A program made the translations under genes and the position numbers. Below the pieces are notes generated by a model. It made no database searches. It was not told where the DNA came from and saw only the letters and a program-made list of their open reading frames with translations. Shown here piece after piece: positions 1-51,401 of a stretch of DNA of 51,420 bases (within the stretch, counting starts at the first letter, position 1; each line of letters begins with the position of its first letter). Where the stretch lies: positions 1 through 51,420 of the forward strand of contig JBBTQB010000007.1 in assembly GCA_038065835.1 (NCBI GenBank), given 5' to 3'. The stretch is from Patescibacteria group bacterium (GTDB lineage: Bacteria > Patescibacteriota > Minisyncoccia > Minisyncoccales > Staskawiczbacteraceae).

Positions 1-28
1 TATCTCATTTTTGAGATTCTCAATCTGA

Positions 29-51
29 TGATAGTTCGAATCCTGCACTCT
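29..51. repeat. Family-A repeat, solo right arm (TGATAGTTCGAATCCTGCACTCT)
   Basis: Exact 23-nt match to the right arm of the 51-bp palindrome at 28898-28948. With flanking bases (19-51) it is a 32/33-nt inverted copy of 51370-51401 at the opposite end of the window. Confidence 0.9.
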
Positions 52-75
52 AAGATTCAAGATTCAAGACTTATA

Positions 76-2731: not shown

Positions 2732-2757
2732 ATTTTTTATTAGATAATAATGTACTG

Positions 2758-3278
2758 CTACTCTTTACCATGACATTTCTTATAATAGGGAGAGCCTTTG
2801 GGAAAATTATACATTTGCCGAACATCTTCTAAGTCGGTGGATCTTGCAACAATGGATTTATAACCTATTAACTCATCTCTGTTAACAACTGGTAAACACA
2901 TCTCGTAAATAAGAAACATTTTTGATCTAGAAAAATCGGTAGGATAGTTAATCCATTCGCCCGTTTTTGCATCATGTATTTTAACTTTATATGCACCCCC
3001 CAAATCAATTGGCTGATTATGATAATTTAACGTTAATAACATTAAGTTAAAGTGATCAGATTTATGTAGATAAGGACCTTTAACTATGAATCTCCTAACA
3101 TAATCAGTTAATACATCGAACCTGTCCTCTGGTATATCTATGTCTATATCGTATAAGGGGCGAGTTGAACATAAATACGAGCAGCAAAACCAGCTGTTAT
3201 CTGATAAGGGATTCTGTGGCTTTTTAGAATACTGCTTATCCAGACTAAAGCATTTTTCACTTTACAATCATTTCCCAT
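2758..3278 (-). pseudogene. Nucleotidyltransferase-fold protein (aminoglycoside/lincosamide NTase-like) with a frameshift in a G4/C4 run
   Basis: ATG at 3278 (overlaps the secA stop by 11 nt) reads MGNDCKVKNALVWISSILKSHRIPYQITAGFAARIYVQLAPYTI-stop(3144). The -1 frame continues RPLYDIDIDIPEDRF... into ORF 2758-3042. One extra C in the CCCC run (plus-strand GGGG 3157-3160) would give the NTase motif ...LAPLYDIDIDIPE. Confidence 0.5.
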
Positions 3279-5748
3279 GGCATTTTTTAAACTTTTTACC
3301 ACCCCCACACCAGCATGGGTCGTTTCGGCCAATTTGGGTGTTGGTTGTTTGATTTTGGGTATTAGATATTTGACTTTGATTCGCTAAGTTTTCGACAATC
3401 CTTGGTTGCCGTTGTGGTTGTACTTGCGTCCCTGCTCTCAAAATATTATCCACAACTTCAAAATCTATCTGATTTAATAGTTGTTGAAATAATCTTCTGC
3501 CCTCGTTTTTGTACTCAACTAAAGGATCTTTACCACCGTAAGCTCTTAATCTTACTGAATCTCTCATATGGTCCATATTGGTAAGATGTTCCTGCCATAG
3601 CATATCTAAAACCCTCAAGTTTATAAACTTAGCGGTCTGATAAAAGTTTTCTTCGCCTAATTCTTTTTTCTTTTTTACTAACTCTTCGGCATTTTGTAAA
3701 TTGTTTATTGTATATTGTTTATTTTCTAGGATTTCTGGTTTAGAGTTTTCAAGAAGTGCCTTGCGCTTCTTGTATATAATTTCCCTGTGCTTATTCATTA
3801 CGTCGTCATATTCTAGCAAGTGATGTCTTGCGTCAAAGTTAAATCCTTCAATTTTTGCCTGTGCAGATTCTAGAGCCCCTGAAATCATTTTTGCCTGAAT
3901 TGGCTCGTCTTCTGGCACCTTTAAAGCAGACATTAACCCTTTAATCCTGTCCCCACCAAAAACTCTCATTAAGTCATCTTCAACAGAAACAAAAAATTGG
4001 GTTGACCCCGGATCTCCCTGCCTTCCAGACCTTCCTCTTAGCTGATTATCAATTCTTCTTGCCTCGTGTCGTTCGGTTCCAATGACATACAAACCACCTA
4101 ATCCCAAAACCCTTAGACTTTGCTCAGGGTCCTGGGGGTTGCCCCCCAGAATAATATCAACCCCGCGGCCTGCCATATTGGTTGCGATAGTTACTGCCCC
4201 CTTTTTTCCGGCTTGAGCTATAATTTCTCCCTCCTTTTCATGGTTTTTAGCATTTAAAATTTGGTGTGGAACGCCTTCTAAATCCAGAAGTTTTCCCAAA
4301 TACTCATTTTTTTCAACGGATCTCGTACCTACCAATACTGGCTGGCCTTTTTGGTTTAGTTCTTTAATTTCTCTTACTACTGCTTTTAACTTTCCGGCTT
4401 CCGTTTTAAAAATCTTATCCTCCAAATCTTTTCTTATCATGGGTTTGTTAGTTAAAACTACAGCAACATCTAATTTGTAAACTTTATCAAACTCTTCAGC
4501 TGAAGTTAAAGCGGTCCCTGTCATACCTGAAAGCTTTTTATAAAGTCGGAAATAATTTTGAAAAGTAATGGTTGCCAATGTTACAGATTCTGGCTGTATT
4601 TTCACGTCCTCTTTTGCCTCAACTGCTTGGTGCAGTCCCTGTGACCAGCGGCGCCCCGGCAGCATTCTGCCAGTGAACTCATCAATAATTATTATTTCGT
4701 CGTTTTTTACAACATAATCTCTGTCTTTTTGAAACAAAGATTTTGCTCTTAATGCAGATTCTAACTGATGAGTTGACGTTATGTCGTTTTCTGCCCAAGG
4801 GTCAGCCCCCAGATTTTTTACAACTTTATCTTGGCCGACCTCGGTAAAATGGACTGCTTTTAATTTTTCGTCAACTGTATAATCTTCATCTCTAACTAAG
4901 GGAGCTACAACTTTTGTGAATTGATGGTATTTTTCCGTTGGATCTTCTGCCTGCCCTGAAATAATTAGAGGAACTCGTGCTTCATCAATTAAAATAGAGT
5001 CCACTTCGTCAACAATGACAAAGTTATGCCCTCTTTGCGATTGCTGGCCCAAATCATAAACCATGTTATCTCTCAAATAGTCAAAACCAAACTCATGGTT
5101 GGTCCCGTAAGTTATATCAGCTTCATATGCTTCTTTTTTACTAACGGGCCTTAAATAATCCTCCACTACCTTAAAACCACCCACCGTGTCTCTTTTTTTA
5201 TCCAAATCGTTCCTTTCTAAATTTTCATTTTGATTTTTGATTTTTGATTTTTGATTTTCGTATACGTATCCTCCTTCATGAGTTATACAACTCACAGACA
5301 ATCCCAAGGCAGTGTAAATTTGTCCCATCCAAACAGCGTCTCTTTTTGCCAAGTAGTCGTTAACCGTTACAATATGAACTCCTTTTCCCTCCAAAGCATT
5401 TATATAGGCAGGCAGAGTGGCAGTTAAAGTTTTTCCTTCTCCCGTTCTCATTTCAGCAATTTTTCCCTGATGCAAGATAATTCCACCCATCAACTGTACA
5501 TCGAAATGGCGCTGATTTAGAGTACGCAGTGCCGCTTCGCGAACCAATGCAAAAGCCTCTGATAAAATATCATCTAAAGTTCCTCCTTTTGCCAATCTTT
5601 CCTTTAATTCTTTTGTTTTTTCTTTTAATTGATCCTCCGATAACTTCTGAATTTCTGGCTCAAGAGAATTTATTTTTTCAGTAATTGGCTGCAGGCTTTT
5701 GGCAACTTTTTGGTTAGAATCCCCAAAAATTTTAGTAAAAATAGACAT
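3268..5748 (-). CDS. secA: Preprotein translocase ATPase SecA
   Basis: Start taken at MSIFTKIFGDSNQK (ATG 5748); the longer ORF to 5817 reads through an upstream terminator hairpin. Walker/DEAD-type VIVDEVDSILIDEARVPLIISG. C-terminal zinc motif CWCGGGKKFKKCHGK. Confidence 0.97.
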   Translation of the reverse strand: MSIFTKIFGDSNQKVAKSLQPITEKINSLEPEIQKLSEDQLKEKTKELKERLAKGGTLDDILSEAFALVREAALRTLNQRHFDVQLMGGIILHQGKIAEMRTGEGKTLTATLPAYINALEGKGVHIVTVNDYLAKRDAVWMGQIYTALGLSVSCITHEGGYVYENQKSKIKNQNENLERNDLDKKRDTVGGFKVVEDYLRPVSKKEAYEADITYGTNHEFGFDYLRDNMVYDLGQQSQRGHNFVIVDEVDSILIDEARVPLIISGQAEDPTEKYHQFTKVVAPLVRDEDYTVDEKLKAVHFTEVGQDKVVKNLGADPWAENDITSTHQLESALRAKSLFQKDRDYVVKNDEIIIIDEFTGRMLPGRRWSQGLHQAVEAKEDVKIQPESVTLATITFQNYFRLYKKLSGMTGTALTSAEEFDKVYKLDVAVVLTNKPMIRKDLEDKIFKTEAGKLKAVVREIKELNQKGQPVLVGTRSVEKNEYLGKLLDLEGVPHQILNAKNHEKEGEIIAQAGKKGAVTIATNMAGRGVDIILGGNPQDPEQSLRVLGLGGLYVIGTERHEARRIDNQLRGRSGRQGDPGSTQFFVSVEDDLMRVFGGDRIKGLMSALKVPEDEPIQAKMISGALESAQAKIEGFNFDARHHLLEYDDVMNKHREIIYKKRKALLENSKPEILENKQYTINNLQNAEELVKKKKELGEENFYQTAKFINLRVLDMLWQEHLTNMDHMRDSVRLRAYGGKDPLVEYKNEGRRLFQQLLNQIDFEVVDNILRAGTQVQPQRQPRIVENLANQSQISNTQNQTTNTQIGRNDPCWCGGGKKFKKCHGK
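5228..5258. repeat. Heptanucleotide tandem repeat (TTTTTGA x about 4) inside secA
   Basis: GA dinucleotides recur at 7-nt spacing (5232, 5239, 5246, 5253). Encodes KSKIKNQNEN within a lineage-specific SecA insert. Confidence 0.85.
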
Positions 5749-26979: not shown

Positions 26980-27729
26980 TTATGGTTTTTTAAAATATAC
27001 TCCTGTATAATCTATTTTTATTAAATCCGGCCTTACATTTCGCTTTAAAAAAAATTCTTCTAAAGCCTTTTTCGCCCCTTCCCAGTGGCCATAATCATCA
27101 ATTATTATATATCCTCCAACTATAACATTGTCGTATAAATTATCAAGGCAACATTTCGTGGATTCATACCAGTCCCCGTCTAACCTTAGGATGGAAATTT
27201 TCCCTATTTTTTCTCTCGCTTTTGGCAAAGTGTTCTGAAACCAGCCTTTTTCAATAACTATGTTATCTTTTTTTAACCTCAACACTTCAAAAAGCACTTC
27301 TTTTACATCTTTTAAAGATGCTACGCATTGCTCTATTGTTTGAAGTTTGCCTTCTGTTTTATTGCCAGCATACTCTTTTGCTACAAGCCCGTCTTCTTTA
27401 GTTGGCTCCGGTAAACCTTCAAAAGAGTCAAAAAGCCATGTTTTGCGATTTGAATTATATTTTTTTGCCACAAAAGCCATTATTGCTGAACATCCTCCTT
27501 TCCATACCCCACATTCAACAAAAGCACCATTTATTTTCTTTCCCTCTATTTTTTTTGCCAATTGGTAGACATTGGACAGTCTTTTGTAGCCAGACATAGT
27601 ATAGGGATAAACTTTCAAGAACAGCCACAATTTTTCAAAGTTAAAAAAATCTTGCGGTGAAATTCCGCTCCAAAATCTTAACTTTTGGTATAATTGACTT
27701 TCTCTTATTAAATTTTTAATTATTTGCAT
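26980..27729 (-). CDS. TylF/MycF-family (macrocin-O-methyltransferase-like) sugar O-methyltransferase
   Basis: 249 aa. ECGVWKGG and LRLDGDWYEST motifs. Confidence 0.75.
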   Translation of the reverse strand: MQIIKNLIRESQLYQKLRFWSGISPQDFFNFEKLWLFLKVYPYTMSGYKRLSNVYQLAKKIEGKKINGAFVECGVWKGGCSAIMAFVAKKYNSNRKTWLFDSFEGLPEPTKEDGLVAKEYAGNKTEGKLQTIEQCVASLKDVKEVLFEVLRLKKDNIVIEKGWFQNTLPKAREKIGKISILRLDGDWYESTKCCLDNLYDNVIVGGYIIIDDYGHWEGAKKALEEFFLKRNVRPDLIKIDYTGVYFKKP

Positions 27730-28882
27730 TTTCTAGAAACTGCCACTCTTTAATAATATTTTTAATATCAAAATCCAATGCTCTTTTTATTGATTTTTCT
27801 TTAAGTTCATTTAATAAATTTTCATCTGAAAGGAGTTTTACCGCGGCCTCGCTTAATTTATCTTTATCCCTTGGCCTTACCAATGTCCCGTATTCTGCAT
27901 ATTCAATATCTTCTGTTTCAAAACCGAAATTAGTATCGGGAGCTAAAATCTCCCTTGGTCCAGATTTACAATCAAAAGAAACAATGGGTAGACTGCAAAC
28001 CATTGCCTCTAACAGAACATAGGGCAAACCCTCCCACAAAGAAGATAATAAAAAAAGTTTTGACCTTGCAAGAAATTTAAATGGGTTTTTCTGCCACCCA
28101 AGAAAGTAAATATCTTTATCTAAACCTAATCTTTTTGAAAGTTCTTTTAATTCTCTCTCCAGCTCTCCCTGTCCGAGAATCACTAATTTTACATTTTTTA
28201 TTTCCTTCTTTATCTTTAAAAATGCTTCTATTAGGCTTTTTTGATTCTTTTGAAAAGTAAGTCTGCCCACATTTATAATAACAGGATTATCAAATATTTC
28301 TTGATACTTTGTTTCAAGAGGTTCTTCTGCTAATTTTTCAATTTCTTTTACATTTAAGGGGTTGTAAATTACTTTGATTTTATTAGCTTTTACCCCAAAA
28401 TTCTCAATTAAATCTTTAGCGGAAGCTTTTGACACATCAATAACAAAATATGCTTTGTTAAAAAACCTCTTAATAAAAAATTTATAAATTCTGCCGCCTA
28501 AATCATAACAAGAATTGGACAAAAATCCTTCTACTCTGACAATAGCTCTTTGCTCCCTGCCTGCCGGCAGGCAGGCGGAAAGAATATTGATGACGTTGGC
28601 AGGATGCCCGAAGCTTATTACATAGTCTGGATTCTCTGTTTTAACTATTTTCCTAAACTTCAGTAAACCCAGTAAATAATGGAAAATCTTGGAAAACGGA
28701 TTTTTTAGCGGTAAGGGAATATTTAAGGAAATTAAATTTCCTTTATAAGGATAAGAAACTTCTTTTTTAAATAAAACAATAACCCTCTCCATGGACTCGG
28801 GCAAATTTAAAGAAAGTTCTGAAACTACCCTTTCTCCCCCGCCAATGCTTAGAGTTGGTATTAAAAATAAAACCTTCTTCAT
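27716..28882 (-). CDS. GT4-family glycosyltransferase
   Basis: Start taken at MKKVLFLIPTLSIGGGERV (ATG 28882); the longer ORF to 28945 reads through the 51-bp palindrome. EGLPYVLLEAMVCSLPIVSFDCKSGPREIL. Carries the 20-nt palindrome at 28556-28575 in frame. Confidence 0.8.
   Translation of the reverse strand: MKKVLFLIPTLSIGGGERVVSELSLNLPESMERVIVLFKKEVSYPYKGNLISLNIPLPLKNPFSKIFHYLLGLLKFRKIVKTENPDYVISFGHPANVINILSACLPAGREQRAIVRVEGFLSNSCYDLGGRIYKFFIKRFFNKAYFVIDVSKASAKDLIENFGVKANKIKVIYNPLNVKEIEKLAEEPLETKYQEIFDNPVIINVGRLTFQKNQKSLIEAFLKIKKEIKNVKLVILGQGELERELKELSKRLGLDKDIYFLGWQKNPFKFLARSKLFLLSSLWEGLPYVLLEAMVCSLPIVSFDCKSGPREILAPDTNFGFETEDIEYAEYGTLVRPRDKDKLSEAAVKLLSDENLLNELKEKSIKRALDFDIKNIIKEWQFLENANN
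28556..28575. repeat. 20-nt perfect palindrome CCTGCCTGCCGGCAGGCAGG (copy 1, inside GT4)
   Basis: Identical to 28997-29016. Read as ACLPAGR. Confidence 0.95.
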
Positions 28883-28897
28883 GAAATATCGATGCTT

Positions 28898-28948
28898 AGA
28901 GTGCAGGATTCGAACTATCATCAATTGATAGTTCGAATCCTGCACTCT
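28898..28948. repeat. Family-A 51-bp perfect palindrome (23-bp arms, 5-nt loop)
   Basis: AGAGTGCAGGATTCGAACTATCA-tcaat-TGATAGTTCGAATCCTGCACTCT. Contains the TGA stop of the methyltransferase and ends 15 nt before the GT4 ATG. Confidence 0.95.
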
Positions 28949-29946
28949 TTAGCGAATAGGCACATACGAATTATTGGCTGCATTAGTATGCATTTGCCTG
29001 CCTGCCGGCAGGCAGGTATATTGGTATCGCGGTTTATTTGTAGTTCAACAAACATTATTCCGTTATTGCGACCCGTTAATCTTCCAAACGTCCACAAAAA
29101 AAACGCCGGGACAAATCCTATTAAATACATCTTAATCTTTGCCAGAATATACAGTACCTTGGCAAGCAGAGAAGATTTTTTGTTTTCAATAGAATTGCTA
29201 GCCGTCCTAGCTGCTAATCCTGACCTAAATCTGCCGTCTATTGCGCCCATTATCATTTTAAACTGCTCTACATAGCAAAAATCCGATATTTCAAAGTTAA
29301 TTTTTGAAAATAAATTAGAAATTGCCTCTTTATTCCACCTTGTGAGGTGATGTGGGGGGAAATCCCAATTATTCCAATTTGCCAGCATGCGTTCCCTAGA
29401 TGGAGTGCTTATTATCATCTTTCCCCCCGGTTTTAACAACTTCTTTGCGCTTTTGATGAATTTCAAAGGATCTTGGACGTGCTCTATCACTTCAAAAAAG
29501 ACAACATAATCAAACAAGGGCAAATTTTGCCTTTTAAAAAAACCTTCAAATGGTTCAGCAAATACATTTTTTAAGCCAAAATATTTTTTGGCTAATTCAA
29601 TGCCTTTTCGGTCAAAATCAACTCCAAAAACCGTATATCCTCTTTTTTCCAGTTCAGCAATAAACTCTCCCGAGCCGCAACCTAGTTCAAGTACGGCAGT
29701 ACCTGCTGGAAACTGCAAATACTTCTGTAAAAACTTTTTGTGGGACCCGCGATATATCTTTGGGCCTATTACATTTTTTATTTCGTAATCGCTTGTCTCT
29801 TCATACCAATGAGCTCCTGGGTTTTTCGCGCCCCAAAAGAATTGCACCTTACAATCTTTGCATTGGTACATAAAAAACTCATTATATTTCATGATGGGTA
29901 TTAGTTCTCTGCTTTCTTTACAAATTGGGCAAACATTGGGATTCAT
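28921..29946 (-). CDS. Zinc-ribbon + class I SAM methyltransferase with membrane helix; repeat-encoded C-terminus
   Basis: CPICKES...CKDCKVQ. Motif I VLELGCGSGEF. Helix MYLIGFVPAFFLWTF. The last ~30 codons run through the 20-nt palindrome and the 51-bp palindrome. Confidence 0.7.
   Translation of the reverse strand: MNPNVCPICKESRELIPIMKYNEFFMYQCKDCKVQFFWGAKNPGAHWYEETSDYEIKNVIGPKIYRGSHKKFLQKYLQFPAGTAVLELGCGSGEFIAELEKRGYTVFGVDFDRKGIELAKKYFGLKNVFAEPFEGFFKRQNLPLFDYVVFFEVIEHVQDPLKFIKSAKKLLKPGGKMIISTPSRERMLANWNNWDFPPHHLTRWNKEAISNLFSKINFEISDFCYVEQFKMIMGAIDGRFRSGLAARTASNSIENKKSSLLAKVLYILAKIKMYLIGFVPAFFLWTFGRLTGRNNGIMFVELQINRDTNIPACRQAGKCILMQPIIRMCLFAKECRIRTIN
28997..29016. repeat. 20-nt perfect palindrome CCTGCCTGCCGGCAGGCAGG (copy 2, inside methyltransferase tail)
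   Basis: Identical to 28556-28575. Read in a different frame as PACRQAG. Confidence 0.95.
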
Positions 29947-51297: not shown

Positions 51298-51369
51298 TTG
51301 ATTATAGAACAGTTGGCTTTGCTGTATCTTTTTTTCGTAATCCAAAATTAAATCAATGATTTTACTTAA

Positions 51370-51401
51370 AGAGTGCAGGATTCGAACTATCATCAATTGA
51401 G
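51370..51401. repeat. Family-A repeat, solo left arm (AGAGTGCAGGATTCGAACTATCATCAATTGAG)
   Basis: The first 31 nt are identical to 28898-28928. Inverted copy of 19-51. Confidence 0.9.

Follow-up and report, generated by a model that had tools for sequence, protein, structure and literature searches.

A 20-nucleotide palindromic hairpin found twice at a methyltransferase–glycosyltransferase junction in Patescibacteria: a probable mobile micro-element

The 51,420-nucleotide (nt) stretch of DNA analysed here (the window) is contig JBBTQB010000007.1, contig C7 in our numbering, of a Patescibacteria group bacterium (assembly GCA_038065835.1, here genome G000; 692 kb in 68 contigs, 36.5% G+C) that homologue names and sample labels place in groundwater. 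It holds two identical 20-nt perfect palindromes, CCTGCCTGCCGGCAGGCAGG, in two neighbouring genes of the minus strand, a GT4-family glycosyltransferase (copy 1) and an S-adenosylmethionine (SAM)-dependent methyltransferase (copy 2). We consider it probable (roughly 0.78) that both are independent insertions of a ~20-nt GC-rich hairpin micro-element, a kind of selfish, non-coding DNA that propagates inside bacterial genomes and from one to another. Comparison across genomes supports the mobile, selfish nature of the 20-mer well; the enzyme and the chemistry of its movement we infer from its junctions and neighbours. The palindromes and the host of copy 1 are as follows:

28556..28575, no strand: 20-nt perfect palindrome CCTGCCTGCCGGCAGGCAGG, copy 1 (exact match, 0 mismatches)
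28997..29016, no strand: 20-nt perfect palindrome CCTGCCTGCCGGCAGGCAGG, copy 2 (exact match, 0 mismatches)
27716..28882, minus strand: GT4-family glycosyltransferase, 388 amino acids, host of copy 1 (Pfam Glycos_transf_1, 1.3e-35; Glyco_transf_4, 1.3e-13)
28556..28576, minus strand: 21-nt in-frame insertion, GCC TGC CTG CCG GCA GGC AGG, encoding A103-R109 (homologue protein and codon alignments)

A glycosyltransferase loop and a gene junction

A preliminary description of this DNA had reported two identical palindromes, copy 1 read as ACLPAGR within the GT4 gene and copy 2 as PACRQAG within the tail of the methyltransferase open reading frame (ORF), the pair flanking the gene junction and a 51-bp palindrome of another family (family A, 28898-28948). 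All of this is borne out. No third copy occurs within the window at <=3 mismatches, and 100 shuffles of the window yielded 0 copies, where none is expected by chance. The 20-mer had also been called G+C-only, which needs correcting: 16 of its 20 letters are G or C, the others being two T and two A, in a window of 32-42% G+C. Aligned in inverted orientation, the two copies agree over 21 nt (28556-28576 versus 28996-29016), and folded as single-stranded DNA (ssDNA) the 20-mer has a stem of 8 bp closed by a CCGG loop (-8 kcal/mol). None of its six frames contains a stop codon. With 4-5 copies genome-wide, a spacing of 441 bp has P ~0.013. Two studies provide four runs whose assembled contigs carry both copies unchanged; the copies are therefore not an assembly artefact.

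Copy 1 entered a surface loop of the GT4 protein, with a net gain of 21 nt and seven added residues. Within a set of 1314 homologues (E<=1e-40), the nearest, P0002 and P0003 (77% identical) and P0004 (72%), are without exactly these seven residues; they read ILSG|ARAIVRV where the window's GT4 reads ILS-ACLPAGR-EQRAIVRV. The homologues L010-L014 are likewise shorter by 6-7 residues at this point, as are the GT4 orthologues of related genomes (47-58% identity). In the codon-level DNA alignment, the 21-nt gain follows a conserved TC(T/C) codon (TCT here) and precedes a codon starting with G (GGA). In the AlphaFold model of the protein (mean pLDDT 87.8), the insert (residues 103-109) spans the end of helix 93-104 and the loop that leads to strand 112-117, and it is the locally lowest-confidence block.

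The same codon appears to have been entered more than once. Decayed copies occupy the identical position in two distant homologues, P0014 (TCLPAGM) and P0020 (GGLPVGRE). Maximum-likelihood phylogeny nests the window's GT4, with starred support, among homologues whose site is empty, and it places the decayed-copy GT4s in a separate, fully supported clade that includes one empty member. Given this topology, at least two independent gains at one GT4 codon would be the most parsimonious reading; since the window's copy is perfect, it would be the younger of the gains.

We note that four further homologues, P0005, P0008, P0018 and P0015, carry unrelated inserts at the same loop codon (alignment A1, columns 113-126), of 7 residues (SWFFSNRK) or 14 residues (RLGVFASRTTLATS / NLGVWASERTIAARY). 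The loop is at least very tolerant, and its codon is either a hotspot for several elements or merely the sole tolerant spot.

Copy 2 has a different setting. A mosaic of several repeat families was inserted at a stop/start junction that once overlapped, and it lengthened the methyltransferase by 36 residues. The features of this junction are:

28921..29946, minus strand: SAM-dependent methyltransferase ORF, 341 amino acids, last 36 codons derived from the mosaic (Pfam Methyltransf_23 over residues 71-220 only; tail alignment)
28883..29031, minus strand: ~149-nt repeat mosaic between the native methyltransferase end and the GT4 start codon (comparison with syntenic loci L216 and L217)
28981..29029, minus strand: composite repeat cgataccaatata-[hairpin]-caaatgcatactaatg holding copy 2 (flanks recur at contigs C14, C19 and C2)
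28898..28948, no strand: 51-bp perfect palindrome of family A, holding the methyltransferase stop codon (23-nt arms, 100% complementary)

At the two syntenic loci, which share the gene order capsule-synthesis gene, methyltransferase, GT4 and TylF-like methyltransferase, the methyltransferase has 312 and 320 amino acids and its stop overlaps the GT4 start. In the window, homology stops at ...NGIMFVELQIN and is followed by 36 unrelated codons, the frame closing at a TGA within the 51-bp palindrome's loop; the resulting tail has no counterpart in homologous methyltransferases. Judged by this alignment, the peptide PACRQAG is a read-through of an intergenic-type repeat and not an indel within a conserved domain. 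The earlier suggestion of miniature inserts tolerated in frame holds for copy 1, a seven-codon gain that the nearest homologues are without, and for the family at large, and it does not hold for copy 2, where a repeat mosaic is merely read through. The 6-7-residue indels anticipated for both proteins are found in the GT4 (exactly seven residues) and not in the methyltransferase.

The flanks of copy 2, cgataccaatata...caaatgcatactaatg, recur around longer hairpins at C14:6890-6958, C19:5860-5937 and C2:19705-19814. These hairpins are built from (CTGACTGCC)n/(GTCAGGCAGGC)n, and in C14 and C2 a family-A palindrome then follows, as it does in the window. Longer GC hairpins that have the ends of the 20-mer and grow symmetrically by tandem 9-11-nt units are seen at C14:6903-6942, C19:5873-5934, C2:19710-19800 and C48:7368-7409; one arm consists of (CTGACTGCC)n and the other of (GTCAGGCAGGC)n, which suggests palindrome expansion arm by arm.

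The family-A palindrome is 51-55 bp long, and its arm, AGAGTGCAGGATTCGAACTATCA, resembles a tRNA T-arm. There are 121 arm copies in the 692 kb, and an arm lies within 80 nt of 68 of the 136 contig ends, including both ends of the window (26-54 and 51367-51400); family A is therefore what breaks up the assembly. Its depth in the metagenome contigs is ~230 times that of flanking genes, which suggests that it is common to many organisms of the sample.

A hairpin family within and beyond the phylum

A genome-wide count, proposed in the preliminary description, finds the exact 20-mer four times in the 692-kb genome: twice in the window, at C46:2748 and at C49:533. Close variants lie at C28:2166, C52:2306, C2:2045 and C56:5314, and longer hairpins with the same ends occur as well. 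The copy at C46:2748 is in the gene for MurJ, which carries YLPAGRQV, seven extra residues relative to same-genus orthologues. With <=1 mismatch allowed, the 20-mer is present in 28 of 61 related genomes, and the reversed-sequence control gave zero in all of them; within the genus the copy number lies between 0 and 14, and in a sister genus it is as high as 24. The two observations that had been named as speaking against an insertion, absence of the 20-mer elsewhere and conservation of the peptide segments among homologues, are thus both contradicted.

Patescibacteria have almost no intergenic DNA, and the 20-mer is repeatedly a seven-codon gain in conserved genes. We examined ~55 sites from four related genomes by aligning the host proteins to their orthologues in G000. 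Most of these sites lie inside long ORFs, and the alignments are repeatedly gapped exactly at the palindrome. In 24 cases the alignment spans the palindrome; nine of these are exact seven-codon gains with well-conserved flanks, and one further site, a 1.5-copy array, is a 14-codon gain. By their conserved motifs (no family search was made), hosts of the seven-codon gains resemble triose-phosphate isomerase, the KsgA/RsmA rRNA dimethyltransferase and UMP kinase. The three reading frames of the 20-mer are used 24:7:6, favouring LPAGRQ, the sole cysteine-free reading (P=2.5e-4). We read this bias as a selection filter; a phase preference of insertion could also produce it. Copies cluster, with seven pairs less than 1 kb apart in six genomes against 1.4 expected (P=7e-4), and coding copies decay by C>T/G>A changes.

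In two orthologue pairs, L030 with C44 and L049 with C18 of G000, the 'empty' side already holds part of an arm (AGGCAGG, or TTACCTGTTGGC coding SLPVG), and the gains amount to 18 or 15 nt. Either an old copy was partly deleted in these cases, or microhomology aided the insertion.

In an even sample of the phylum, the exact 20-mer occurs in 86 of 401 genomes and 76 of 320 genera, at 1-24 copies per carrying genome; the reversed control occurs in 0 of 401. When bacteria and archaea were scanned with one genome for each species, at least 120 stretches with the 20-mer, spanning ~10 phyla, were returned, where chance would give ~0.03 copies over the whole collection at 40% G+C. Among the matches listed, the carriers belong to Patescibacteria, Omnitrophota, Bacteroidota, Bdellovibrionota, Gamma- and 'Delta'-proteobacteria, Planctomycetota, Nitrospirota-type Thermodesulfovibrio, Thermodesulfobacteriota, Chloroflexota and others, and they include the cultured Bacteroidota Winogradskyella (such as W. 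echinorum KCTC 22026), Flagellimonas (such as F. yonaguniensis), Longitalea and Flavivirga. Outside Patescibacteria most copies appear intergenic. The 20-mer is also found in 35 viral contigs, and phages are probably a vehicle of its spread.

Two of the viral contigs are related to one another. In the predicted viral contig L205 (2284-2303), the 20-mer lies in the variable region of a tRNA-Met that ARAGORN still calls as a tRNA, with the hairpin as a long variable arm; L182 (8616-8635) has the same 5' part, and its 3' part is missing. At L075:4041-4060, the 20-mer occupies the D-loop of a tRNA 5' half; this tRNA is split by a complete tRNA-Met gene, with the 3' half downstream, so that the tRNAs are nested.

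Insertion junctions and a candidate mobiliser

The cleanest empty sites are provided by partial tRNAs that bear the 20-mer and lie beside an intact tRNA (L097, Lys; L166, Gly; L178, Leu; L212). Each of these fragment/intact pairs, four in total, has a gain of exactly 20 nt, with no base duplicated or lost. Such junctions, exact and free of target duplication, speak against transposition of the DDE type and fit the insertion of a single-stranded hairpin. When the 20-mer was deleted and ARAGORN run again, tRNAs were mostly not restored, because the interrupted copies are partial tRNA fragments and not whole genes. At flank position -1, T is depleted (4-9%) and A enriched (41%) in all three data sets, and the flanking pairs A..T, G..G and C..C are in excess; beyond this position, the flank profile contains no wider target-site motif. 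For two coding sites, L035 and MurJ, a gain of 20 nt plus a nearby compensating frameshift was considered, and the 21-nt reading aligns equally well.

We favour, as a working scheme, a 20-nt hairpin that would move as single-stranded DNA and not by DDE-type cut-and-paste. Inside genes, only rare gains of a multiple of three (20+1) in tolerant loops would survive selection. The mobilising enzyme would act in trans, and its best candidate is a UPF0213-like GIY-YIG nuclease.

This candidate comes from the neighbourhoods of the hairpin. A profile built from the four small GIY-YIG proteins of G000 was searched against all ORFs of the 20-mer loci and gave ten hits, of which seven lie within 150 nt of a hairpin (permutation P<5e-5), the hairpin always being upstream. 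Five loci (L097, L166, L178, L212 and L120) have the hairpin upstream of a small GIY-YIG ORF or domain, at a distance of 16-50 nt. All but L120 are gene cassettes docked at tRNA genes and share one order: a partial tRNA interrupted by the hairpin, a 16-32-nt spacer, a GIY-YIG ORF of ~80 amino acids (79 in L097, from a WWE3 genome, and 88 in L212) and an intact tRNA. The nearest solved chains to the hairpin-linked nucleases are the UPF0213 proteins 1YWL and 1ZG2 (E ~6e-4); the nucleases have no NCBIfam match. Based on this sequence context, a small UPF0213-like GIY-YIG nuclease acting in trans may be the mobiliser, a proposal that we make tentatively.

The fifth locus, L120, is arranged differently. 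Its 20-mer (3861-3880) lies within a type I restriction specificity subunit of Thermodesulfobacteriota (Methylase_S; ORF 2751-4892), and ~20 codons further on the same frame contains a complete GIY-YIG domain (residues 391-458). By its sequence, the locus resembles a hairpin-plus-nuclease unit that has entered a gene.

Other possible partners were set aside. The GIY-YIG genes of G000 itself (C26, C46, C39 and C59) have no 20-mer nearby and have other hairpins or inverted repeats instead. Two of them, C46:617-826 and C59:7885-8103, form cassettes adjoining genes of structured RNAs: one is directly upstream of an apparent RNase P RNA gene (GGAGGAAAGTCCG motif) and is bracketed by the inverted repeat CCCCCCACTAATT/AATTAGTGGGGGG, and the other lies between two tRNA-Met genes, with an imperfect hairpin of its own just before the start codon. 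The GIY-YIG gene count was discarded as a predictor of copy number, as its order-wide correlation (rho 0.50) reflects phylogenetic confounding and falls to 0.11 within the family. G000 has three matches to PF01797 (Y1); neither the presence nor the counts of Y1/RAYT transposases follow the 20-mer, and we do not favour them as mobilisers.

Taken together, these observations raise the possibility that a bare, cargo-free 20-nt hairpin is the smallest mobile DNA unit seen so far, excised or copied as ssDNA and re-inserted with the aid of UPF0213-type GIY-YIG nucleases that would be carried as tRNA-docking, phylum-crossing cassettes, partly on phages. In this full form the proposal is doubtful.

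Several findings weigh against an active element of this kind or against its proposed partner. The assembled contigs of the four runs contain no transposition event, empty allele or excision product. Coding copies have a net gain of 21 nt, one more than the 20-nt unit; the 21st nt could be a variable junction product kept by selection, or part of a 22-nt A...T form. The repeated gains at one GT4 codon could arise through selection for a tolerant loop and not through target preference. The nuclease arrangement is present in only ~6 of 155 cross-phylum loci, and no small GIY-YIG gene of G000 or of the copy-rich relatives G027, G020 and G059 adjoins a 20-mer. Within the family, copy number is hardly related to the counts of GIY-YIG genes (the rho of 0.11 given above) or of Y1 transposases (rho 0.14), and G010 has seven copies and 0 Y1 matches. 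At the cassettes, the hairpin lies 8-15 nt outside the apparent boundary, in tRNA-derived sequence, where it may mark a cleavage site, act as a regulator or have landed independently. Finally, GIY-YIG enzymes are hydrolytic and unable to join DNA alone, and a ligation step must therefore be assumed.

Alternative explanations, known systems and implications

Among the alternatives to a mobile micro-element, the one that survives best, improbable as it is, holds that selection keeps the hairpin, at least in copy 2 and its mosaic, as a domesticated signal in RNA or DNA, such as an operon-junction insulator, a translational pause or a site that stabilises or processes mRNA. The mosaic of copy 2 sits exactly at a gene junction, and the same mosaic is found at C14, C2 and C19; the hairpin is stable, and its position 16-32 nt before the start codon in the nuclease cassettes could regulate expression. 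However, relatives have the same operon without the 20-mer, the coding copies stand at arbitrary protein positions and are decaying, and presence is patchy even within the genus. A known RNA family or a terminator was rejected, with no Rfam family above threshold and no terminator-like T tract at the sites.

The preliminary description had also raised recombination or binding sites, that is, a functional pair of cis-acting sites placed deliberately around the methyltransferase/GT4 junction. This we regard as very improbable. The inverted 21-nt identity of the copies and the gene junction that they bracket are what such a pair would show, and other genomes likewise have pairs separated by a few hundred bp (for example 385, 556, 645, 658 and 690 bp). 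Yet the syntenic relatives keep the same operon without either site, other copies lie singly at unrelated places in unrelated housekeeping genes, and perfect palindromic sites give recombination no defined orientation. Structural variants between the copies had been suggested as a check; no inverted or deleted form is present in the assembled contigs of the four runs (raw reads were not used, and rare variants may escape contigs). Two apparent joints, 'skip 420' and 'skip 63', were dismissed as structural variants, as they derive from other loci that share the repeats; one side of the 'skip 420' joint measures only 22 nt. Recombination or binding sites are thus unsupported and not needed to explain the pair.

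Independent local mutation, by (CCTG)n slippage and quasi-palindrome correction, or sequencing and assembly artefacts are less probable still. Such an origin would suit a sequence made of CCTG/CAGG repeats, longer variants that grow by tandem 9-nt units, and the arm-like empty sites of the L030 and L049 pairs, but not identical letters in at least 120 stretches, the empty reversed control, coding copies that keep the reading frame, decayed copies that indicate evolutionary age, or a 20-mer that four independent runs, isolates and one complete chromosome from long reads all contain. Least probable of all, and refuted by the syntenic alignments, is the suggestion that the palindromes are the ends of a ~460-bp unit transposed as a block: the identical inverted termini and their 441-bp spacing would suit it, but the DNA between them is the native 5' third of GT4 (the N-terminal third of the protein) plus the gene junction, is collinear with relatives' loci that have neither palindrome and has no second copy in the genome by BLAST, and copy 1 lies in frame inside a continuous GT4 alignment.

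The hairpin micro-element shares features with several known systems and matches none of them. Rickettsia palindromic elements (RPEs), which Ogata et al. reportedly described in 2000, are said to be palindromic selfish repeats that lie in frame within conserved genes of a reduced genome. We know of no transposase for RPEs or for the present element. They measure ~100-150 bp and form diverged families (RPE-1 to RPE-8) in one genus. As in RPEs, a palindrome lies in frame in conserved genes and adds short, tolerated peptide loops, here in GT4, in MurJ and in the nine exact seven-codon gains in relatives. In contrast, the present unit has 20-22 nt, one-fifth of the RPE size, is hosted by Patescibacteria, and is distributed over ~10 phyla and viral contigs at 1-24 copies; the two are set apart here by description and not by sequence comparison. 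Excerpts of PMC1779305 and PMC10969869 mention RPEs.

Closer in arrangement are the Ssn proteins, single-domain GIY-YIG ssDNA nucleases associated with NTS/SRM hairpin repeats, which include the 20-bp dRS3 palindrome of Neisseria (Chenal et al. 2025, PMC11893778). The SRM consensus is CGTCATTCCCGCG...GCGGGAATC and NTS is CGTCATTCCCGCGMAVGCGGGAATCYRG; SRMs occur in hundreds of extragenic copies, and the role ascribed to Ssn is the modulation of transformation and not the movement of its repeat (PMC11893778). Both systems have a dispersed short hairpin that is sometimes beside a small stand-alone GIY-YIG gene, an adjacency present at the five loci described above and absent for the GIY-YIG genes of G000, G027, G020 and G059; both also have mosaic intergenic (NIME-like) arrays, as at copy 2. 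However, the 20-mer is unrelated to the SRM/NTS consensus, and its linked nucleases are nearest to UPF0213; they may or may not fall in CDD cd10448, the Ssn class.

REP/REPIN elements with their Y1-type RAYT transposases, and the BIMEs of E. coli, are GC-rich hairpins thought to be mobilised in trans as ssDNA without target duplication, and they form mosaics at gene junctions. REP/REPIN sequences are imperfect palindromes with a conserved 5' GTAG-type tag, present in hundreds of overwhelmingly extragenic copies. The 20-mer resembles them as a GC-rich hairpin without target duplication that forms a mosaic with other repeats at a gene junction, and the several-family mosaic of copy 2 recalls those of BIMEs and NIMEs. 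It differs in being a perfect palindrome without a conserved tetranucleotide in its flank profile, in its copy number of 1-24 per genome, in lying mostly inside ORFs in Patescibacteria and in not tracking Y1_Tnp presence.

Yeast mitochondrial GC clusters are GC-rich palindromes in an AT-rich organelle genome. GC-rich or coding palindromes of organelle genomes appear also in excerpts of reports on Volvox (PMC2670323) and Nematomorpha (PMC6649704). The likeness lies in short GC-rich palindromes that invade an AT-rich compact genome, coding sequence included; the organelle palindromes are lineage-specific, and none is unchanged between distant lineages. Prokaryotic MITEs (miniature transposable elements with inverted repeats), as excerpted from PMC10969869, are non-autonomous elements of 50-500 bp with terminal inverted repeats and target-site duplications, derived from recognisable insertion sequences and sometimes in frame. 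The 20-mer is likewise non-autonomous and sometimes in frame, with inverted repeats of 10+10 nt and nothing between them, but its gain in the four tRNA pairs is exactly 20 nt with no duplicated base. No parent insertion sequence turned up, only short internal variants being seen, and no search for CCTGCCTGCC...GGCAGGCAGG termini around transposase genes was made.

The searchable literature, 8.4 million papers, contains no match to the 20-mer, its core or the peptide LPAGRQ, and keyword searches returned analogues only; the 20-nt mobile hairpin is apparently undescribed. A letter-perfect 20-mer that extends over ~10 phyla and into essential genes is hard to explain without active, widely shared mobilisation. 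In annotation, its inserts create spurious 'lineage-specific' loops and C-terminal extensions, such as the 36-residue methyltransferase tail, and together with other repeat families they fragment assemblies. If the proposed mechanism is true, it would move the minimum size of mobile DNA downwards and give a function to a large uncharacterised family of mini-nucleases (UPF0213/YhbQ-like). It would also be a natural case of sequence- and structure-specific handling of ssDNA, with possible value as a tool, and would account for part of the unusual protein insertions in genomes of the candidate phyla radiation, including the micro-insertions in essential genes of Patescibacteria.

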